Below, one piece after another: positions 3,759 to 60,226 of a stretch of 64,000 nt of DNA. The stretch is taken from positions 19,216 through 83,215 of the forward strand of contig JAZNWH010000105.1 in the NCBI GenBank assembly GCA_045593265.1, in the 5' to 3' direction. A program made the position numbers and the translations under genes. Position 1 is the first letter of the stretch. Every line of letters starts with the position of its first letter. The stretch is from Clostridia bacterium (lineage in GTDB: Bacteria; Bacillota; Clostridia; RGIG6154). The notes beneath the pieces are model-generated. The model saw nothing but the letters and a program-made list of their open reading frames with translations, had not been told where the DNA came from and ran no database searches.

Positions 3759-4439
3759 ATGAAGGTTCTTGCTATTGACACCTCTACTTCGTCTGCTTCG
3801 GCGGCAATCGTAAGCGACGGAAGACTTTTGGGCGAAATAACTTTAAATCCTGATAAAGCTCATTCTCAGGTCATTATGCCTGTGATAGAAAAATTACTTT
3901 CTCAGCTTGAGCTTACCCCTCGTGATATTGATATTTTTGCTGCAACTCAGGGGCCCGGCTCTTTTACCGGACTTCGAGTTGGCATCAGCACCGTAAAAGG
4001 TCTTGCCGATGCTCAGGATAAACCTGTTATAGGTGTTTCAACCATGGAAGCCATGAGCCATATGTTTGGTTTTAGAAATGATTACATATGTACTCTTATT
4101 GATGCAAGAAGAAATCAGGTATATTTTGCACTTTATCAATATGTTGACGGCAATATAACTACCGTAATGGAACCTGATGTTGAAGATATTTCAATTCTTT
4201 TAAGTAAACTTAGCTGCCTTAACAAACAGATTATTTTCACAGGCGACTGTGTGGAAAAATTCGTTGAACTTATTAAAGAACATATGGGCAGCAGTGCGAT
4301 AATGCCAATGCGTGCTTACTGTGTGAGTGTTGCCACAAGTGCAGCAATTCTTGCAGAAAAGATGTTCAACAAGAAAGAATACAAAAAAATCGAACCAGAC
4401 TATATGATTAAAGCTTATGTAGATCAGGAAAACAAATAA
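3759..4439 (+). CDS. tsaB: tRNA t6A biosynthesis protein TsaB
   Basis: 226 aa. N-terminus MKVLAIDTSTSSASAAIV is typical of the inactive Kae1 paralog. Confidence 0.85.
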   Translation: MKVLAIDTSTSSASAAIVSDGRLLGEITLNPDKAHSQVIMPVIEKLLSQLELTPRDIDIFAATQGPGSFTGLRVGISTVKGLADAQDKPVIGVSTMEAMSHMFGFRNDYICTLIDARRNQVYFALYQYVDGNITTVMEPDVEDISILLSKLSCLNKQIIFTGDCVEKFVELIKEHMGSSAIMPMRAYCVSVATSAAILAEKMFNKKEYKKIEPDYMIKAYVDQENK

Positions 4440-4451
4440 AGGAGAAAGATT

Positions 4452-4892
4452 ATGATAGCAATCGGTTGCGACCACGGTGGTCTTGAATTAAAGGAAAGTA
4501 TAATTAAGCATCTTAAAGACAGAGGTTTTGAGGTTAACGATTTTGGTACATACACAAAAGAGTCAGTTGATTATCCTGATATTGCAGCAAAGGTTTGTCC
4601 TGAAGTCTTAAACGGGAAATGTGAATTCGGTATATTGATATGCGGAACAGGAATAGGTATTTCTATCGCTGCAAATAAACATAAAGGCATCCGTGCTGCT
4701 CTCTGTTCCGACCCGTACAGTGCTGCAAAAACTAAAGAGCACAATAATGCAAATGTTATTTGTCTTGGTGGAAGAGTAACAGGTCCTGACCTTGCAAACA
4801 CCATTGTAGATGCATATATTGATGCAAAATTCGAAGGGGACAGACACGAAAAAAGAATCAAGAAAATTACAGATATTGAAAATAATCAATAA
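4452..4892 (+). CDS. rpiB: ribose-5-phosphate isomerase B
   Basis: 146 aa. MIAIGCDHGG is RpiB/LacAB family. Confidence 0.85.
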   Translation: MIAIGCDHGGLELKESIIKHLKDRGFEVNDFGTYTKESVDYPDIAAKVCPEVLNGKCEFGILICGTGIGISIAANKHKGIRAALCSDPYSAAKTKEHNNANVICLGGRVTGPDLANTIVDAYIDAKFEGDRHEKRIKKITDIENNQ

Positions 4893-4901
4893 GGAGCAAA
4901 T

Positions 4902-5396
4902 ATGGAAAGAATTGATAAAATAAATTATTATCTTGACATAGCAGAAACAGTGCTTGAAAGAGGAACATGCCTCAGACGTAATTACGGAGCTATCATCGTT
5001 AAGAATGACGAAATTATTTCAACGGGATATGTAGGCGCTCCAAGAATGAGAAAGAATTGTATTGATTTAGGTTATTGTCTGCGTCAGAAAATGAATATTC
5101 CACGTGGTACCCGTTATGAATTATGCCGTTCTGTTCATGCTGAAGCAAATGCAATAATCAGTGCTTCAAGACGTGATATGATTGGAGCAACTCTTTATCT
5201 TGTAGGAAGAGAAGTTGACAGTGGTGAATTGATTGAGAATGCATCCTCCTGTGCTATGTGTAAGCGTATGATTATCAATGCAGGAATTGAAAAAGTCTGT
5301 ATAAGAAACACGAAGGATAAATATACAATTATTGACGTTAATGACTGGATTGAAAATGACGATTCTCTTGAAGTTCCAGCTAAGGAAGGTTATTGA
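4902..5396 (+). CDS. comEB: dCMP deaminase (ComEB-like cytidine/deoxycytidylate deaminase)
   Basis: 164 aa. Zinc-binding HAEANAI and CAMCKRM motifs. Confidence 0.75.
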   Translation: MERIDKINYYLDIAETVLERGTCLRRNYGAIIVKNDEIISTGYVGAPRMRKNCIDLGYCLRQKMNIPRGTRYELCRSVHAEANAIISASRRDMIGATLYLVGREVDSGELIENASSCAMCKRMIINAGIEKVCIRNTKDKYTIIDVNDWIENDDSLEVPAKEGY

Positions 5397-17751: not shown

Positions 17752-17908
17752 GCACTGTTGCAAATCTGCCGAAGGAGCAGTTTGCATAGAGGATGTGAAA
17801 TCACTTCACGCTTATATATTAACTTTTTATGTGTACAATATTCTGTACACATAATTTTTATTTATATAAAAAACTGCTTAAAAATTTTATTTTTAAACAG
17901 TTTATTTT

Positions 17909-18712
17909 TTATTTATTATCAAGTTTACTTAAGAATGCTTTTGTTCTCTCATGTTTTGGGTTATCAATAACCTCCTGAGGAGTCCCCTCCTCCATTACAA
18001 CACCGTCTGCCATAAATATTATTCTGTCAGACACATTCCTTGCAAATCCGATTTCGTGAGTTACAATAACCATTGTAACATTCTCTTTTGCAAGCTGCTT
18101 TATAACTCTCAAAATTTCTCCTGTAAGTTCAGGATCAAGGGCTGATGTAGGTTCATCAAAAAAGAGTATTCTCGGTTTAAGAGCAAGGGCACGAGCAATA
18201 GAAACTCTCTGTTTTTGACCGCCTGAAAGCTGACAGGGATAATTATTAATCTTGTCTGTTAAGCCAACACGATCAAGAATAGAAAGAGCATTTTTTTCAA
18301 TATCCTCACAAATTTGTTTTTTATTATCCTTATAGTCAGCACGTTCTTTGGCAAGTAGCTTTGGTGCAAGCATAACATTTTCAAGAACTGTATACTGAGG
18401 AAACAAATTAAAATCCTGAAACACAAGTCCGAAATTAAGCTGTTTACTTCTAATTTCCTTTGCTGATGCTTTTTTATGTTCAGCACCGTCAAAAAGAATT
18501 TCACCATCAAGGAAAATTTTTCCCTTATCTGCTCTTTCAAGAAAATTAATACATCTTAAAAGCGTAGTTTTGCCACTTCCCGATGAACCAATAACACTTA
18601 AAACCTCACCCTCCTGCATTGAAAAGTTTACGCCCTTCAAAACCTGAGTTTTACCGAAGTTTTTATAAAGATTTTGTATTTCTAAAATGTTCACAATATC
18701 CCCCCTACTCAA
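17909..18712 (-). CDS. polar amino-acid ABC transporter ATP-binding protein
   Basis: 267 aa. Walker A GSSGSGKTT, LSGGQKQR, GlnQ-like. Confidence 0.85.
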   Translation of the reverse strand: MSRGDIVNILEIQNLYKNFGKTQVLKGVNFSMQEGEVLSVIGSSGSGKTTLLRCINFLERADKGKIFLDGEILFDGAEHKKASAKEIRSKQLNFGLVFQDFNLFPQYTVLENVMLAPKLLAKERADYKDNKKQICEDIEKNALSILDRVGLTDKINNYPCQLSGGQKQRVSIARALALKPRILFFDEPTSALDPELTGEILRVIKQLAKENVTMVIVTHEIGFARNVSDRIIFMADGVVMEEGTPQEVIDNPKHERTKAFLSKLDNK

Positions 18713-19349
18713 AATAGCTTAACTTTTTCTCAATACGACTAAAGAGTATGGTAAGCAAACCGTTGAATATGAGAAAATATATTCCCGTAGAGAAAAGAGG
18801 CCATATTAAACCTTTTTTTGTAAATCTTTCAGCACACATAATAATTTCAGAAACACTAATTACTCTTGCAAGAGATGTATCCTTAACAAGGGTTATTACT
18901 TCGTTACTTATAGGTGCTACTATTCTTTTTACAACCTGAAACAGCACTACCTTGAAAAACGCCTGTGTTTTTGTCATACCAAGCACCTGACAAGCTTCAT
19001 ACTGTCCTTTTGAAATTGACTCTATACCACCTCTGAAGATTTCAGAAAAGTAAGCTGCATAGTTTATTACAAACGCAATTAATGTCGCTGTCATTCTTGA
19101 GCTTATGGGCATATCAAAAAGCATACCCGGAGCATACATAACAACGAAAAGCTGGAGCATCAGAGGTGTACCTCTGATGATCCAGACAAAAGTTCTCGTA
19201 ATCCATCTTATGGGAGCAAATTTCATCATTGAGCCAAATGAAATTATAAGTCCCAAAGGCAATGACATTAAAAGAGTGAGTACAAATATTATACAGTTTA
19301 CATAAAAACCTTCAAACAGAGAAGATATAATAGGTAAAATGTTATTCAT
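18705..19349 (-). CDS. polar amino-acid ABC transporter permease
   Basis: 214 aa, HisM/GlnP-like TMD with EAA loop. Confidence 0.8.
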   Translation of the reverse strand: MNNILPIISSLFEGFYVNCIIFVLTLLMSLPLGLIISFGSMMKFAPIRWITRTFVWIIRGTPLMLQLFVVMYAPGMLFDMPISSRMTATLIAFVINYAAYFSEIFRGGIESISKGQYEACQVLGMTKTQAFFKVVLFQVVKRIVAPISNEVITLVKDTSLARVISVSEIIMCAERFTKKGLIWPLFSTGIYFLIFNGLLTILFSRIEKKLSYFE

Positions 19350-19369: not shown

Positions 19370-20191
19370 TTATTTTACTTTTGATACCATAACCTGCTTA
19401 TTCTGCATATATGGTACTGAAATGCTCATATTTTCAAGTCTTTCCTGGGTAATTGTCATACCGTTCCAGATACAGTCGATATTCTTTGAATTAAGCTCGA
19501 TTTCTTTTGCATCCCAGTTAATTTCAATAAAGTTTGCTTCAACACCTAACTTAGCACAAACTGCTTCAGCAAATTCTGTTTCAAAACCTACAAGCTTATT
19601 TGCATCATCATAATAGTTCATAGGTGCAAAAAGTGTAATACCGATGTTAAGTACACCTTTTTCCTTAACATAAGCAAGGTCGCCTTCAGTAATTTCTGTT
19701 TCGTTTGCTTTTCCGTCTTTAATAACAAGAGCATCAAGCTTATAGTTTTTACCGATAGCATCCATTGTTCCGTCAGCAGCAAGTTCTGCAATTGCAGCAT
19801 TTACTGCATTTGTAAGGTCGCTTCCTTTTCTGAAAGCAATACCATATTCTTCAGGGCTGAAATCTTTACCCTCAACAACTGCTAAATCAGCAAAATCTGT
19901 GCCTTCACCTATTGAACCGATTGATGTTACATAGTCAACAATTGCAATATCAGCTGTTCCTGCTTCAACTTCCATCAAAGCTTTTGCCATTGAATCTACA
20001 GGAGTAAATTCAGCATTTGCAAAGAAATCGTCGCCTGTTGCAAGTTCTTCACCTGCTGAACCTGCTTCAGCAACTACTTTTGCACCTTCAACTGACTGTG
20101 AATAATCAACATTTTCATCTGTGTTTGTACCGCATGCAGCAAGTGAAAACATAAGCATTGCTGCAAGAATTAATGATAATACTTTTTTCAT
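19370..20191 (-). CDS. amino-acid ABC transporter substrate-binding lipoprotein (SBP_bac_3-like, apparently circularly permuted)
   Basis: 273 aa. Lipobox LAAC|G. The lobe-2 and C-terminal segments (GAKVVAEAGSAGE ... EEYGIAFRKGS ... DGTMDAIGKNY) come before the canonical N-terminal segments (GFETEF ... GMTITQERLE ... PY). Confidence 0.75.
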   Translation of the reverse strand: MKKVLSLILAAMLMFSLAACGTNTDENVDYSQSVEGAKVVAEAGSAGEELATGDDFFANAEFTPVDSMAKALMEVEAGTADIAIVDYVTSIGSIGEGTDFADLAVVEGKDFSPEEYGIAFRKGSDLTNAVNAAIAELAADGTMDAIGKNYKLDALVIKDGKANETEITEGDLAYVKEKGVLNIGITLFAPMNYYDDANKLVGFETEFAEAVCAKLGVEANFIEINWDAKEIELNSKNIDCIWNGMTITQERLENMSISVPYMQNKQVMVSKVK

Positions 20192-20322
20192 TTTAATTTC
20201 TCCCTTCGGAATTTATTACTCTACCATTTTATCACTTTACTTTAGTAAAGTCAATAGTTTTCATAAAATATTTTTTATTGTATAAATGTTTACTCTGTGG
20301 TATACTTTTAAGTGGTGATAAT

Positions 20323-21078
20323 ATGGTAATAAGACTTGGAAAATCCAACGAAAAAGAAGAACTTAAAAGCTTATGGAGAGAGGTTTTTGATGAAGATGAA
20401 TTTTATCTTGAATACAAATTTGATAAAAACTTTAAACCATGTCAATCCGTTGTAGTTGTAGATAAAAAAATTATTGGAGCTGCCCATTATGATACGCTGT
20501 CCATAAATGGCAAAAAAGTTGCCTATATTAATGGTGTATCCATAAAAAGGGAACATCGCGGGAAAAATATTTCGTTAAGAATGATGGATTACCTGCATAA
20601 CCATTTATTAAACGAAGGCTTTGCTTACTGCTTTTTAAAACCTGCAATTAACAATTATTATGAAAAATTCGGATATAAAACTGTAATTAGTGCCGCAAAA
20701 AGCAATTTGACTTACAAAGAAGTTCCTTCTTACAGTGTTACCAATTACGGTTATATTGAAATTTTTGAAGAGATGTGTAAAAAGCATAGTATTTTTCTTC
20801 CCCGCTCTGAAAAGAGATTTGAAAAAATTAAAAAACTGTATAATAACTATGATGGAGGAATCATTTGTTTTGAAAGAGAAAAAGAGCTTTTAGGATATGC
20901 TCTGTACGCAAAAGAAGATGAAAAAATTGTCATTGAAGAATCTGTTTTCCTCAATGACAACGGTTTTGATATTATGGGTAATTACTTTGAAAATGCCTCT
21001 GTAAACGAACTTGCTGTGATGATTAAAGATTTAAATGATAAATTTGATTATCCTGATGCATTTATTAAAGTTGTTTAA
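20323..21078 (+). CDS. GNAT family N-acetyltransferase (Eis-like two-domain)
   Basis: RBS AAGTGGTGA before ATG at 20323. GNAT core with a C-terminal extension. Confidence 0.6.
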   Translation: MVIRLGKSNEKEELKSLWREVFDEDEFYLEYKFDKNFKPCQSVVVVDKKIIGAAHYDTLSINGKKVAYINGVSIKREHRGKNISLRMMDYLHNHLLNEGFAYCFLKPAINNYYEKFGYKTVISAAKSNLTYKEVPSYSVTNYGYIEIFEEMCKKHSIFLPRSEKRFEKIKKLYNNYDGGIICFEREKELLGYALYAKEDEKIVIEESVFLNDNGFDIMGNYFENASVNELAVMIKDLNDKFDYPDAFIKVV

Positions 21079-21988
21079 TTGTGAGTGTATACTTTTTGAT
21101 AAGTTCAAAGGGTTTGAACATTCTTTTAAACTGACGCAGTCCTGCTATTCCTAAATCAGGCCCTATATTAAAGTATTTTACTTCTTTAAATGAATTTTTT
21201 AATGATTCAACATAAATTGCTGTACCCAATCCTTTTATAAGGGGTTGGGTTGTTTTTTGATGGTATCCCATCAAGGTATCACCCAATATCTCACCTATAA
21301 AAAAAGCTGATGGTTTTGAATCCACGTATAAAATGCCTCCTTTTACAGGATACATATCATAATTATCAATAATTTCTTGTATAATATTTTTTTCACATGT
21401 ATACTCACATAAACTGCATTCTTTTCTTAAGCACCAGTTTTCACAGACTTTCATACAATCATTTTTATTATGACTGTTTATTTCTTCATACAGGTAGTCG
21501 TTATTATTGACAAAGGCGTTGTATTGCTCTCTCTTGTGGCGGTTTTGATTGCCACTCATATTTAAAAATTCCTTTATCTCATAAAGGTAATCCCATTGTT
21601 TTTCATCAGTTTCTATTTTTATAACCTTATCTCTAAAAATATCAGTTAAAATACCTTTCTTTTTTTCCGATAAATATGCCATACGCAAAATCTTGTATTC
21701 GTCAAGAAGTTCTTTGACCGTTTTTTCAAAATTTTTTCCTTTGAAATCCCCTAAAATATTTGTATATTCTTGACCTTTATCTTCAAACCTCAAAACATAA
21801 TAGTCATTCTTTTTAGCAAAATGTGCATTATCAATAGACGTATATACACAGGTAGGTGTAAAACCGTACTCATTAATTTTTTCATTTTGAAGATAAGGAA
21901 TACATTCTCTGAAATTTTCCTTATTAACTTTCACAAAATTCATCAAATCACCAAAGGCTATTATACCCCTTTTCTTGTGATAAATCAA
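21065..21988 (-). CDS. DUF2156-like protein (MprF C-terminal/aminoacyl-tRNA transferase-like fold) with Cys cluster
   Basis: 307 aa. C-terminus ...GLRQFKRMFKP resembles the LPG-synthase C domain. Cys cluster CENWCLRKECSLCEYTC. Confidence 0.5.
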   Translation of the reverse strand: MIYHKKRGIIAFGDLMNFVKVNKENFRECIPYLQNEKINEYGFTPTCVYTSIDNAHFAKKNDYYVLRFEDKGQEYTNILGDFKGKNFEKTVKELLDEYKILRMAYLSEKKKGILTDIFRDKVIKIETDEKQWDYLYEIKEFLNMSGNQNRHKREQYNAFVNNNDYLYEEINSHNKNDCMKVCENWCLRKECSLCEYTCEKNIIQEIIDNYDMYPVKGGILYVDSKPSAFFIGEILGDTLMGYHQKTTQPLIKGLGTAIYVESLKNSFKEVKYFNIGPDLGIAGLRQFKRMFKPFELIKKYTLTIKQL

Positions 21989-37770: not shown

Positions 37771-37926
37771 ACTTTCAATTATTTTCCATTGATTATAATA
37801 GAAAACTTTCGTTTTCTGTGAAATTAAACAAATCCTTTATCATACGCTGCAGGCGTATTTCATATTGCGAAGTAATATTTCACTCCCGAAGGGTATTTCA
37901 CGAATCCTGAAAGGATTTATTTCATT

Positions 37927-37988
37927 GAAAAACGACTTGTCGAAACAAGTCGTCAGCCCGCTGACAAAGTCAAAGTCAGCGGGCTGAC
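37927..37988 (-). terminator. tandem hairpins + U-run (terminator/attenuator-like) in the leader upstream of the HAD-hprK operon
   Basis: Perfect 14-bp GC-rich inverted repeat GTCAGCCCGCTGAC-N9-GTCAGCGGGCTGAC. A second hairpin ACGACTTGT-cgaa-ACAAGTCGT and TTTTT follow directly on the minus strand. Confidence 0.4.
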
Positions 37989-38271: not shown

Positions 38272-38347
38272 TGGTGGGAACAATAGGGCTCGAACCTATG
38301 ACCCTCTGCTTGTAAGGCAGATGCTCTCCCAGCTGAGCTATGCTCCC
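38272..38347 (-). tRNA. tRNA-Val (anticodon TAC)
   Basis: Reverse complement is GGGAGCATAGCTCAGCTGGGAGAGC...CTTACAA...GGTTCGAGCCC...CCCACCA. Cloverleaf fits and CCA is encoded. Confidence 0.85.
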
Positions 38348-38368: not shown

Positions 38369-38445
38369 TGGTAGCGGCGAGTAGACTTGAACTACCGACC
38401 GTTCGGGTATGAACCGAATGCTCTAGCCAACTGAGCTACACCGCC
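38369..38445 (-). tRNA. tRNA-Met elongator (anticodon CAT)
   Basis: Reverse complement is GGCGGTGTAGCTCAGTTGGCTAGAGC...TTCATAC...CGCCGCTACCA. Closely resembles Firmicutes elongator tRNA-Met. Confidence 0.8.
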
Positions 38446-56972: not shown

Positions 56973-58061
56973 TTATTCTATACCAAATAACTCGGTGATT
57001 TTATGCTCATCGATTTTTGAACCTATTACACAAATTCTTCCTGTTATATCAGCTCCGCCTGAACGTACATCAGGTTCGCCCGGAACATAGTCAAAATGAA
57101 TCCAACTTGAATCTTCTGCTTCTACAATTCCCTTTGCTCTCAAAATCATACCATATTCAGTTTCATCATTCAAAGCATTAAGTATACGTTCAATTTCTTC
57201 AACTGTAAACTTTTTAGTAGTTTCAGTTCCCCAGCTTGTAAACACCTCGTCAGCATGATGATGTTCGTGATGATGGTCATGACAGCCACAAGAACATTCT
57301 TCACCATGATGGTGCTCATGTTCATGATGATGCTCATGTTCATGATGGTGCTCGTGCTCATGGTGATGTTCGTGTTCATGGTGATGTTCGTGTTCATAAT
57401 GATGACCACATACAGGACAAGCACTTTCCTGTTCGTCTTTTAATTTTTCAAGAACAGCATCAAGTGTAGACTCTCTTTCTATCGCTTCAAGAAGCTGTTT
57501 TCCTGTGAGCATATCCCATGGAGTCGTAACTATAACTGCATCTTTATTATGCTCTCTAATAAGCTCTGCTGCTTTTTTTGTTTTTTCCTCGCCTACTGTT
57601 TGAGTATGACTTAAAACAATACATCCTGCATGCTCAATCTGATCATTGTAAAATTCACCGAAATTTTTCATATACATTTTGCATTTTCCTGCATCTGCAA
57701 CAGCAGTAAATCCATTTAACACCACATCATCGGCTTCTATATCTCTTACAGCTTTTATTACATCACTCAGTTTGCCAACGCCTGAAGGTTCAATCAAAAT
57801 TCTGTCAGGAGAAAAATCTGCAAGAACTTTTTTAAGTGCTTCGCCAAAATCTCCTACAAGACTACAGCAAATACATCCCGAATTCATTTCTGTAATTTCT
57901 ATTCCTGCTTCCTTTAAAAACCCTCCGTCAATACCTATTTCACCAAACTCATTCTCTATTAAAACAACCTTTTCACCACAATAAGCTTCCTGAATAAGTT
58001 TTTTAATGAGAGTAGTTTTTCCTGCACCTAAAAAACCTGAAAATATATCTATCTTTGTCAT
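56973..58061 (-). CDS. COG0523 family metallochaperone GTPase with His/Glu-rich metal-binding tract
   Basis: Start MTKIDIFSGFLGAGKTT after AGGAGG. Has the GCICC motif. Tract CPVCGHHYEHEHHHEHEHHH...HGEECSCGCHDHHHEHHH. Upstream TTGACA-17-TATAAT promoter. Confidence 0.8.
   Translation of the reverse strand: MTKIDIFSGFLGAGKTTLIKKLIQEAYCGEKVVLIENEFGEIGIDGGFLKEAGIEITEMNSGCICCSLVGDFGEALKKVLADFSPDRILIEPSGVGKLSDVIKAVRDIEADDVVLNGFTAVADAGKCKMYMKNFGEFYNDQIEHAGCIVLSHTQTVGEEKTKKAAELIREHNKDAVIVTTPWDMLTGKQLLEAIERESTLDAVLEKLKDEQESACPVCGHHYEHEHHHEHEHHHEHEHHHEHEHHHEHEHHHGEECSCGCHDHHHEHHHADEVFTSWGTETTKKFTVEEIERILNALNDETEYGMILRAKGIVEAEDSSWIHFDYVPGEPDVRSGGADITGRICVIGSKIDEHKITELFGIE
57255..57410. repeat. 18-bp tandem coding repeat (x5-6) encoding (HEHEHH)n within the COG0523 gene
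   Basis: ttcatgatggtgctcatg / ttcatgatgatgctcatg / ttcatgatggtgctcgtg / ctcatggtgatgttcgtg / ttcatggtgatgttcgtg. Confidence 0.8.
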
Positions 58062-58178
58062 AACTTTTTTCCTCCTTTGAATCTTATAATTTGCAGCATA
58101 CACTAAATACTAATTATACATAACTTTTTCATTCCTGTCAATTGCTCTTCATAACCAATCAGATAGAATTTAAAACAC

Positions 58179-58697
58179 TTATCTTTTCGAAAGTTTTACT
58201 ACTTTGTCGTGTATCAAATGCCAATTACCCTTATCATTAATTTTAATTGCCTTGTCTGTTTTATATAATGTTTTAACAGAATTATTACTGTAATCAACAC
58301 TAACATAATTTGATAGATATTGATTAAGTTCTTTATGCAAAGGAATTGCCTCTTTTATCATATCAGGATTATTTTTCATAATTCTTAAAAGAAGCTTATA
58401 ATCATCAATTAAATACTCTAAAAACATGTCCCTCTTCGGATAAATTGTATAATAAAAAACAAACTCTTCTTCTATCTTATCACAAATATTTATGGCATTA
58501 ATTATTGAAGATTCAAAATATCTGTTAGGCTCATCATCTGAATACATATTCTCATACAAATTAGATAATTGATGTATATTTGAAATTATATAATCAGAAA
58601 TATTCTTTGATATTCTTTGCTTGTTGTTTACATGCACTACATTAATTATTCCCAGAACAACAATCACTGCAACCAACAATGTAACAATTTTCTTCAC
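58179..58697 (-). CDS. hypothetical membrane-anchored protein (N-terminal TM, 172 aa)
   Basis: Very AT-rich, no homology recognised. Confidence 0.45.
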   Translation of the reverse strand: MKKIVTLLVAVIVVLGIINVVHVNNKQRISKNISDYIISNIHQLSNLYENMYSDDEPNRYFESSIINAINICDKIEEEFVFYYTIYPKRDMFLEYLIDDYKLLLRIMKNNPDMIKEAIPLHKELNQYLSNYVSVDYSNNSVKTLYKTDKAIKINDKGNWHLIHDKVVKLSKR

Positions 58698-58750
58698 TCT
58701 AATTACCTCCTCATTACAGCCATAATAACAGTCTATAACAAATATCGAAG

Positions 58751-59446
58751 TTATTCTTTAATGGTTCTATTTATATAAGTTGCGTATATAAGTGGCACTA
58801 TTATCAAAAACATAGGAACTATATATAATGACATTGAATTTTCAATATTAAATACAGAAAGTGAATTCATTAAAGAATGTGTAATTATACAAGGGATGAG
58901 TGATTTACTTTTATAAAATATAATAACAAATAAATATCCGATTGAAAAAGCATAGCATATTTGCATTAATGTTGGAATTAATTCTGCACCGTTTAACAAA
59001 TTAATTATATGTCCTATTCCAAAAGTAATTGCATTTACAATTATTGCAATTCTAACATTATCTTTTTCCATCATTTTAAATAAAAACCCTCTGAAAATTA
59101 TTTCCTCAATAAATCCAACATTTATCATGGTTAGCACATAAAATACAATATCGCCTGTTGAATGATTTATGTTAATTCCATTCCACAAGTTTACAGTTGA
59201 TATTAGAATTAATGGAAAGAAAAATAAATATTTCTTTGGATTTTTGATTTTGGTAATACCATAATATTTTGTCCTGCCCAAAGCAATCATCAATACTATT
59301 AAAAATACAGAAAAAACAGTATTAACAATTGTGCTTCTATAATCAATTAAACCGAAATTCTGAATACAATAAGAGTTTATAATCAGATAAAGTAAAACTA
59401 ATAATATACAAAATAAAGTTTCATTCTTTTCAAATATTTTTTTCAT
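58751..59446 (-). CDS. CPBP family intramembrane metalloprotease (CAAX protease/Abi-like)
   Basis: 231 aa. EEIIFRGFLF, HIINLL and HSLMNS motifs. Confidence 0.75.
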   Translation of the reverse strand: MKKIFEKNETLFCILLVLLYLIINSYCIQNFGLIDYRSTIVNTVFSVFLIVLMIALGRTKYYGITKIKNPKKYLFFFPLILISTVNLWNGININHSTGDIVFYVLTMINVGFIEEIIFRGFLFKMMEKDNVRIAIIVNAITFGIGHIINLLNGAELIPTLMQICYAFSIGYLFVIIFYKSKSLIPCIITHSLMNSLSVFNIENSMSLYIVPMFLIIVPLIYATYINRTIKE

Positions 59447-59549
59447 AAGTTCACTCTAATCTTTTATATGATATTCTCTGTCTTTTTAACAAATTCAACA
59501 TAATTCTTACAAGGCTTAAGGTTTAGATATAAACCATTATAGCAATATA

Positions 59550-59639
59550 TTCACGAGCTTCGTGCTTTAATTTTCACTCTATTCAAATGCGATATAACTC
59601 CATTTTGCGACCTTGCGATATGAAATTTAGGAAATTCCT
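59550..59639. repeat. intergenic repeat element copy B (similar to 38050-38141), containing an extended -10 promoter-like sequence on the minus strand
   Basis: CACGAGCttCGTG hairpin, then AAATGCGATATAACTCC...CCTTGCGATATGAAATTTAGGAAATTCCT. Minus strand has TGcTATAAT about 100 nt upstream of the CPBP gene. Confidence 0.45.
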
Positions 59640-59982
59640 ATTCAGCAACAATAAGAGCAATAAAAACAAGCATTTCATCACCGGTATTTCTAATTGAGTG
59701 CCCCTGCCCCGACGGGGTTAATGTTACCATTCCCGGAGCTACTTCAATTTTGTTTCCGTTATCATTATAACTACCTTGTCCCGAAAGAATAAAGTATGTT
59801 TCACTTTCTCCAACGTGCATATGATAATCCACTGCCTCACCCGGTTTTATCTGCACCAAAGAGAACGTTCTTATTCTCGGATCTGATACATCAAAGTCTG
59901 CAAGGTCAGTCATAAACATTTTTTCCCTGCCTTCATTATTTAACTTTGTTTTCGTTTTTAGTTGTTGTATTTTTTTGTGCAT
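59638..59982 (-). CDS. cupin domain protein
   Basis: 114 aa with a small-barrel His cluster. Confidence 0.6.
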   Translation of the reverse strand: MHKKIQQLKTKTKLNNEGREKMFMTDLADFDVSDPRIRTFSLVQIKPGEAVDYHMHVGESETYFILSGQGSYNDNGNKIEVAPGMVTLTPSGQGHSIRNTGDEMLVFIALIVAE

Positions 59983-60226
59983 ATTAAACCCTTTCTACAA
60001 TTAAAAATTATATTTTACTTAAGCTTATTATATACGGGATATAAAGTTTAGCTTTTCTCAATTTTGATATCTGTTTCGTTTTTTCATACTCATTTACCGC
60101 AACCAATGCACCAGCACAAATATTTGTTGATATTTTACCATAATTATATTATAAGCAGGCAAAATTGTCAATGTATTGTATACGCCTTGTGTTCGTTTGA
60201 TATTCCCTGTTTTAAGCTTGTATTAA

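Follow-up and report, generated by a model that had tools for sequence, protein, structure and literature searches.

Within a 64,000-nucleotide (nt) stretch of Clostridia bacterium DNA (GTDB lineage Bacteria; Bacillota; Clostridia; RGIG6154; GenBank assembly GCA_045593265.1, contig JAZNWH010000105.1, positions 19,216 to 83,215; hereafter the window), the minus-strand open reading frame (ORF) at 19370-20191 encodes an amino-acid substrate-binding protein (SBP) whose two halves stand in the reverse of the usual order. We consider it very likely that this gene encodes a functional, circularly permuted SBP lipoprotein of a polar-amino-acid ATP-binding cassette (ABC) importer (SBP, permease and ATPase), and that it arose by duplication followed by truncation. 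In what follows, the B segment is the canonical second half of the protein and the A segment the canonical first half.

Exchanged halves of a substrate-binding lipoprotein

The exchanged order was apparent from comparison with solved structures. In a phmmer search against PDB chains, residues 178-271 of the query matched residues 9-103 of AncQR (4zv1; 51.5 bits, independent E-value (i-E) 1e-12) and residues 28-147 matched residues 109-227 of the same chain (40.7 bits, i-E 2e-9), and the two matched stretches are reversed relative to AncQR and likewise to dozens of solved SBPs. Residues 28-147 correspond to the canonical second half (lobe 2, crossover strand 2 and the C-terminal helices), and residues 178-271 to the canonical first half (lobe-1 core and crossover strand 1). 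Profile searches gave the same picture. The Pfam SBP_bac_3 model (PF00497) scored 106.8 bits against a cut-off of 26.4, with the match split into two stretches, while the NCBIfam GlnH model aligned query residues 23-149 to profile positions 118-241 (score 63, cut-off 303) and the NCBIfam cystine-binding model, the best-scoring of that collection, aligned residues 154-271 to positions 16-135 (107 bits, cut-off 312). None of the NCBIfam equivalog cut-offs (GlnH, cystine-binding, ArtI/ArtJ, HisJ/ArgT) was reached, so no specific substrate family could be assigned.

The canonical SBP_bac_3 chain order, which the native sequence lacks, was restored by rotation. When the query was de-permuted in silico (residues 166-273 followed by 22-165), residues 13-234 of the rotated chain aligned with AncQR 9-227 in a single colinear alignment (105 bits, E 3.8e-29). 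A hidden Markov model (HMM) of 249 positions, built from 48 canonical relatives, was also scanned on doubled mature sequences; the doubled query covered positions 4-248 at 324 bits, inside the range of canonical proteins (241-347 bits), and therefore no part of the bilobed fold (both lobes and the two crossover strands) is missing. The new termini fall at HMM columns 111 and 126, which places the cut within the loop just past crossover strand 1, and the junction joins the canonical C-terminus to the canonical mature N-terminus (...SDLDYIKEKGKMIIG), as seen by comparison with the canonical relative P0130, which ends ...NYKLEAQLIAK. With segments exchanged, old termini joined and new termini neighbouring in the fold, these alignments support reading the query as a type II (Cluster F, SBP_bac_3) amino-acid-binding lipoprotein that has undergone a clean circular permutation.

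A sequence-only reading of the window had already noticed the reversed segment order in this lipoprotein, and the phmmer search, the de-permuted search and the doubled-sequence HMM all bear it out, as does the domain-order scan that it had proposed, in which the SBP_bac_3 and NCBIfam matches came out split and inverted. Its estimate of a linker of about 15 amino acids (aa) was close, the truly new part being about 11 aa (residues 159-169) flanked by the canonical tail and the canonical N-terminal helix. It had also put the termini at the hinge; they do lie near it, but the chain is cut where crossover strand 1 reaches lobe 2 (HMM columns ~112-125), and the C-terminal strand (residues 262-271) still crosses the hinge.

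Gene anatomy and structural model

The features of the gene and its operon, all on the minus strand, are as follows.

20226-20254, minus strand: promoter-like site, TTGACT-17-TAAAAT with a TG extension, the best-scoring of the region with 10 of 12 matches (a consensus match only)
20200-20207, minus strand: Shine-Dalgarno sequence GAAGGGAG, 8 nt 5' of the ATG, read from the sequence
19370-20191, minus strand: SBP ORF, 273 aa, ATG start, lipobox LAAC with Cys20
20132-20191, minus strand: lipoprotein signal peptide, aa 1-20 (MKKVLSLILAAMLMFSLAAC), lipobox LAAC; Cys20 invariant in 42 aligned family members
20087-20131, minus strand: short tether and entry loop, aa 21-35, the new N-terminus; aligns to AncQR 104-117 in the de-permuted search
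19862-20086, minus strand: lobe 2, aa 36-110, HMM columns ~126-200, with E42, S45 and D86
19829-19861, minus strand: crossover (hinge) strand 2, aa 111-121 (FSPEEYGIAFR); DSSP strand 111-121 in the AlphaFold2 (AF2) model, and alignment
19718-19828, minus strand: canonical C-terminal helices and tail of lobe 1, aa 122-158 (...NYKLDALVIK, the canonical C-terminus)
19685-19717, minus strand: fusion linker from old C-terminus to old N-terminus, aa 159-169 (DGKANETEITE)
19409-19684, minus strand: canonical N-terminal helix and lobe-1 core, aa 170-261, HMM columns ~10-101, with T186, W226, N243, G244, T246 and R251
19373-19408, minus strand: crossover (hinge) strand 1, aa 262-273 (MQNKQVMVSKVK), the new C-terminus; DSSP strand 262-271, residue 271 at HMM column 111; stop codon at 19370-19372
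18705-19349, minus strand: ABC permease (BPD_transp_1), 214 aa, starting 20 nt past the SBP stop; Pfam 60.7 bits
17909-18712, minus strand: ABC ATPase (ABC_tran), 267 aa, overlapping the permease stop; Pfam 123 bits

As read from the sequence, MKKVLSLILAAMLMFSLAAC fits the Gram-positive lipobox pattern [LVI][ASTVI][GAS]C. VDYSQSVEG, in the region of aa 21-35, is the canonical loop after crossover strand 1, and crossover strand 2 is the sole through-going covalent link between the lobes. The AF2 monomer model has a predicted local distance difference test score (pLDDT) of 86 and a predicted template modelling score (pTM) of 0.75; pLDDT is low at residues 20-24, and the lowest-confidence loop spans residues 95-98. 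Within the linker, D159, G160 and A162 are at least 90% conserved and pLDDT is ~85-88. Foldseek aligned about 83 lobe-1 residues of the model to canonical SBPs at 1.1-1.3 Å, and no solved chain with the query's connectivity was present among the fold and sequence matches.

Under the permutant reading, the mature protein would adopt an ordinary bilobed Venus-flytrap fold with an alpha-amino-acid site built from both lobes. The chain would run from Cys20 through lobe 2, crossover strand 2, the old C-terminal helices, the 11-aa linker and the old N-terminal helix with the lobe-1 core to crossover strand 1, and ligand capture and docking on the permease would proceed as in a canonical SBP. The lipid tether would emerge next to the hinge on lobe 2 through only ~8-15 residues, whereas canonical SBPs are tethered by lobe 1. 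Of the two connections between the lobes, one would be covalently continuous and the other a terminal strand kept in place by hydrogen bonding.

Conservation, selection and operon context

Homologs with the same permutation, which the sequence-only reading had suggested looking for, proved numerous: at least 120 clusters (90% identity) match the query colinearly over its full length at 69-92% identity, and the form is present in at least 80 species genomes. Among one-genome-per-species GTDB contigs, 456 stretches encode relatives, and locus figures refer to the best 80 of these. All 80 are colinear with the query (a few are cut by contig ends) at 56-92% identity, the closest being a Feifaniaceae metagenome-assembled genome at 92%. 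Their sources are uncultured Clostridia of the gut (Ructibacterium, Feifaniaceae, Ca. Fimenecus, Acutalibacteraceae and Oscillospiraceae), for the most part from ruminants and other animals. The permease adjoins the SBP gene in 77 of the 80 loci, and the order SBP-permease-ATPase is found in 72, the others lying mostly at contig edges or under the scoring threshold.

Coding constraint extends across the new junction. The ratio of nonsynonymous to synonymous rates (dN/dS) was 0.086-0.215 against seven orthologs, where computable, and residues 151-177, the linker region, show zero nonsynonymous changes relative to the closest ortholog at a proportion of synonymous differences (pS) of 0.40. Across the family alignment, neither Cys20 nor the binding motifs vary. 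Given the Shine-Dalgarno sequence, lipobox, operon, colinear orthologs, dN/dS, conserved contacts and confident AF2 model, we regard the gene as predicted to be functional and not a fragment.

Recurrent permutation in the clade

A HMMER search of 1.84 billion representatives returned 8,099 relatives, 217 of them under 1e-30, and the two halves were mapped on the best 150. Four discrete permutation phases occur among the nearest relatives, and the proteins of each begin with a Met, signal peptide and lipobox of their own.

Phase 1 (query-like): P0126, P0138, P0148, P0164, P0176, P0186, P0224
Phase 2, starting ~35 residues into lobe 2 and ending ...GSAGE...: seven clusters, e.g. P0142 and P0185
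Phase 3, starting shortly ahead of crossover strand 2 and ending within lobe 2: six clusters, e.g. P0129 and P0144
Phase 4, lobe-1 N-terminal helix and strand 1 relocated to the C-terminus: six clusters, e.g. P0179 and P0215

All four cuts lie in loops (HMM columns ~40, 112-125, 150 and 190), and that of phase 3 coincides with the lowest-confidence loop of the query model. About 30 of about 100 single-domain representatives are permuted. P0151, initially taken as phase 3, was dropped as a canonical protein with a long N-terminal extension.

A neighbour-joining (NJ) tree of the rotated alignment (200 bootstrap replicates) mixed the phases with one another and with canonical forms. Phase-2 P0185 grouped with phase-4 P0215 (88% bootstrap; 99% with P0231), phase-3 P0203 with canonical P0268 (98%) and phase-4 P0179 with canonical P0190 (82%), and some phase-1 proteins are nearer to canonical proteins than to other phase-1 proteins (P0148-P0192, 62%; P0176-P0208, 60%). 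The query's own clade has 100% bootstrap, with canonical P0130 (59-61%) and phase-3 P0129 (56-59%) as nearest neighbours. Monophyly of each phase was unsupported; since the deep nodes are weak, we claim recurrence but no count of events.

Two comparisons at the operon level confirm the recurrence directly. The operon of phase-3 P0129 has the order SBP-permease-ATPase, its permease and ATPase being 70% and 73% identical to those in the window, which indicates the same transporter lineage with its SBP cut elsewhere. Phase-2 P0185 (L086:2737-3591) and phase-4 P0215 (L087:296-1141) are permutants 76% identical to each other; their signal peptides align in place (68%), their mature blocks are swapped at 75-76% identity and both carry the same B-to-A linker. 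Their DNA shows the same exchange of halves, at 78-80% identity, upstream of a colinear permease gene (71% nt, 76% aa), which indicates a recent re-permutation inside one operon lineage. On balance, though with considerable reserve, we favour the view that this clade is an unreported natural hotspot of recurrent permutation, with at least four surface-loop cut points, repeated independent events, living 1.5- and two-domain intermediates and a 76%-identical permutant pair in orthologous operons.

Proposed origin and intermediates

The junction of canonical C-terminus and N-terminus fits permutation by duplication. In the proposed pathway, an in-frame head-to-tail duplication of the mature coding region would come first; the first A and the last B segments would then be lost with the signal peptide (SP) staying in place, and this duplication-truncation would have been repeated in the clade at different cut points. 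Architectures corresponding to such steps are found among the relatives: two full tandem units (SP-A-B-A-B) in the lipoprotein P0158; 1.5 domains (SP-B-A-B) in the ORF at 3995-5179 of locus L064 (394 aa; Ca. Fimenecus sp., JAZNWU010000009.1) and in P0168 (409 aa); SP-B-A with a partial second B in P0170 (344 aa); and SP-B-A in the query. The L064 protein is chimeric, its B1 being 65% and its B2 37% identical to the query B segment and 44% to each other, with resemblance to different subfamilies; it shows that 1.5-domain forms are viable.

Arrays of four to eight tandem SBP_bac_3 domains (P0121-P0125; the largest of six to eight units, up to 2001 aa) were also recovered, P0122 lying at L084:4901-9307 and L085:808-5214. 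They were rejected as bacterial intermediates, their contigs having 19-22% GC, flanks of 7-16% GC and nearly no other ORFs, and the proteins having hydrophobic tails. The short hydrophobic tail resembles a glycosylphosphatidylinositol (GPI) signal or membrane anchor, and the arrays look like those of an AT-rich gut eukaryote (an anaerobic fungus or ciliate) in which a bacterial substrate-binding domain (SBD) was taken up and multiplied.

Ligand site

The closest solved relative of lobe 1 is Tv2483 (6DET), a selective L-arginine-binding lipoprotein whose ligand contacts are R89 (carboxylate), D173 (amino group), E128 (guanidinium), W64, S23 and S84. By index mapping from the phmmer alignment, these residues correspond to R251, D86, E42, W226, T186 and T246 of the query. 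The alpha-amino-acid clamp (R251, D86, T246, T186 and S45), identified here by alignment only, is conserved in the family, and the two-lobe binding site thus appears to be preserved in the permutant. The residue matches to Tv2483 suggest that the ligand is likely a basic or polar L-amino acid, possibly L-arginine.

The equivalents of D86, E42, W226, T186 and T246 are nearly invariant in all phases and in canonical relatives, the Arg excepted. R251 is kept in the query and in 8 of 10 phase-1 sequences analysed; at its position (HMM column 91), roughly half of the canonical relatives and the majority of phase-3 proteins have Leu, Val or Ile instead. Where the Arg is substituted, the Asp, Trp, Glu and Ser/Thr contacts are still kept, and part of the clade may therefore bind something besides a free alpha-amino acid.

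Surroundings of the operon

The 86-nt leader of the operon had no Rfam match to a riboswitch or T-box, which was looked for as a clue to the substrate, and no second SBP paralog was found within the window. A palindromic hairpin with a perfect 11-bp stem lies at 17827-17854, about 55 nt 3' of the ATPase stop, and is a possible bidirectional terminator of the operon. Divergent from the operon, a GNAT acetyltransferase gene (20278-21078, plus strand) overlaps by 14 nt a convergent, stand-alone LPG_synthase_C gene (21065-21988, minus strand). LPG_synthase_C is the C-terminal domain of aminoacyl-phosphatidylglycerol synthase, and a tie between this neighbour and amino-acid supply is conceivable; it is kept in just one of the 80 related loci.

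Elsewhere in the window, a Gut-1 RNA (Rfam RF01706, 61.9 bits) lies beside two tRNA genes (37852-37927, 38275-38347 and 38372-38445, all minus strand), in keeping with the window being from a gut Clostridia genome; GC content falls to 27.7% in 58001-60000 compared with ~35% window-wide, and GC skew is strongly negative from ~22 kb to the window end, which fits the minus-strand majority of genes.

Relation to known systems

With canonical Cluster F/type II SBPs (AncQR 4ZV1, TmArgBP 4PRS/6SVF, Tv2483 6DET, GlnH, HisJ/LAO) the query shares lobes, crossover strands, ligand-contact positions, operon partners and the lipoprotein tether, at ~30-35% identity to solved members and, as noted, closer identity to the uncharacterised canonical P0130. 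It differs from them in being rotated, with termini after crossover strand 1, an 11-aa linker and a tether from lobe 2, and HMM and structure searches match half of it at once. GlnPQ SBD1-SBD2 (6H30) carries head-to-tail SBDs of the same family, and the permuted query aligns colinearly across the junctions of such tandems, which are presumed to be the raw material of the permutation. Unlike GlnP-type tandems, the query is one fold unit of 253 mature residues, with one A and one B segment, a separate permease gene and no second binding site.

Engineered lobes of TmArgBP (6GPC/7A99 for D1, 6GPM for D2) offer a further parallel. The contiguous lobe-1 construct, in which the N and C parts are joined, is the best Foldseek match to the query model, which shows that linking the old termini is structurally benign. 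Engineered circularly permuted binding proteins serve in biosensors. These constructs and biosensor permutants are laboratory-made, whereas the query is a natural gene under selection.

The sequence-only reading had called natural permutation of such a fold unusual, a judgement that needs tempering in view of precedents among binding proteins. TpMglB-2 (Tp0684) of Treponema pallidum is a natural permutant of an ABC ligand-binding lipoprotein for which "Type Ic / Cluster Bc" was proposed; its first three N-lobe strands are shifted to the C-terminus with ligand binding retained, the permutation adds a fourth hinge crossover, the permuted segment is poorly conserved, and tethered proteins of this family are known from spirochetes and Gram-positive gut bacteria (PMC4990184). 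TpMglB-2 has a type I sugar-binding fold and no sequence kinship with the query, whereas the query is type II, with halves clearly homologous to canonical proteins and several cut points in its clade. No MglB-type chain was among the query's sequence or fold matches listed, and we regard TpMglB-2 as an analogue, the query not being a member of Type Ic. Within the type II superfamily, which likewise tolerates natural permutation, relationships of this kind at <24% identity have been described for the glycine-betaine binders OpuAC/ProX, ModA and CysB (CPSARST, PMC2395249); OpuAC and EgtU chains gave full-length but poor Foldseek alignments to the query model (TM 0.40-0.45). Those permutations are ancient, run across functionally different families and are detectable by structure only, whereas here permutant and canonical proteins share 55-62% identity, and two permutants 76%, within one transporter family.

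Alternative explanations

The gene could be non-functional and decaying, left over from a two-domain (SBD1-SBD2) protein after loss of the first and last half-domains. Truncation products of this sort must arise, given that tandem and 1.5-domain relatives exist, but the length and architecture of the query recur across the species and clusters described above, purifying selection (dN/dS 0.09-0.2) includes the linker, the full fold complement (324 bits) and the binding residues are kept, the operon is intact, and the 20-nt junction to the permease is clean, without a leftover B segment. This explanation is already largely refuted, and we find it extremely improbable. Another arrangement would have the protein work as a domain-swapped dimer or oligomer in which lobe 2 of one chain closes in trans on lobe 1 of another. 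The free end on the terminal crossover strand would allow it, B-A-B proteins offer one A segment two B segments, and TmArgBP, a close solved relative, is a C-terminal-helix-swapped dimer. We nevertheless judge it quite improbable, because the AF2 monomer is confident overall, the linker is long enough and conserved, and the termini fall at neighbouring canonical columns, as an intramolecular permutant requires.

Whether the topology is itself adaptive is a separate question. A tether on lobe 2 near the hinge and a freed crossover strand might tune opening and closing, or docking, in Gram-positive envelopes; the authors of the TpMglB-2 study raised the same idea for lipid-tethered proteins of treponemes and Gram-positives (PMC4990184), every permutant found here retains signal peptide and lipobox, and the permuted form is under purifying selection across many species. 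An adaptive role is unlikely in our view. Within the clade, and in orthologous operons too, the four cut points are found side by side with canonical forms and tether the protein by one lobe or the other, a pattern better explained by near-neutral topological drift than by a specific advantage. It is also rather unlikely that the permuted class has already been described and catalogued for the SBP_bac_3 family. Natural permutation is documented in binding proteins and query-type proteins are numerous in public databases, but no NCBIfam model matches colinearly or reaches its cut-off, neither NCBIfam nor Pfam has a specific model for the permuted order, database names are generic and, as noted, solved chains with this connectivity were absent from the matches. 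No paper on permutation in SBP_bac_3 or polar-amino-acid SBPs was found in the full-text literature, most subscription journals being outside the search, and the CIRPIN survey makes no mention of binding proteins of this kind. The sequence-only reading had allowed that the permuted order might be both common and catalogued; it is common in this lineage, but we saw no sign of its being catalogued, and it is probable rather than certain that the permuted SBP_bac_3 family is unreported.

Several points weigh against our preferred explanation of a functional permutant produced by duplication and truncation. Binding, structure and transport are predicted from sequence and a model, and the three-dimensional equivalence to the canonical fold would follow from per-lobe matches together with sequence, the alignment given to AF2 being shallow in diversity (69-92% identity). 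The ligand call comes from six aligned residues at ~30% overall identity, and the E42 equivalent, being conserved clade-wide, does not discriminate the ligand. Terminal branches of the NJ tree are long and its deep nodes poorly supported, which makes the number of independent events uncertain. The L064 protein may be a secondary fusion instead of a frozen intermediate, and the largest tandem arrays lie on eukaryote-like AT-rich contigs and so cannot be bacterial intermediates.

Implications

Apart from its unusual chain topology, the gene product is an ordinary component of a transporter, and what makes it of interest is its family context. It is rare in nature to find canonical forms, several permutants and duplicated intermediates so clearly preserved side by side at 50-76% identity, and the coexisting forms let the duplication-truncation pathway be rebuilt stepwise. 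For annotation, colinear HMMs and domain-order tools under-score such permutants and could mis-call them as fragments, and for protein design the four natural cut sites mark tolerated points for permutation or domain insertion in amino-acid biosensor scaffolds. If our reading is true, the clade would provide a natural "permutation series" in which to test permutation by duplication and the role of connectivity and tethering in Venus-flytrap dynamics, with the permutants serving as natural experiments on whether closure and docking on the permease depend on a pair of through-going hinge strands and on tethering of lobe 1 at the N-terminus.

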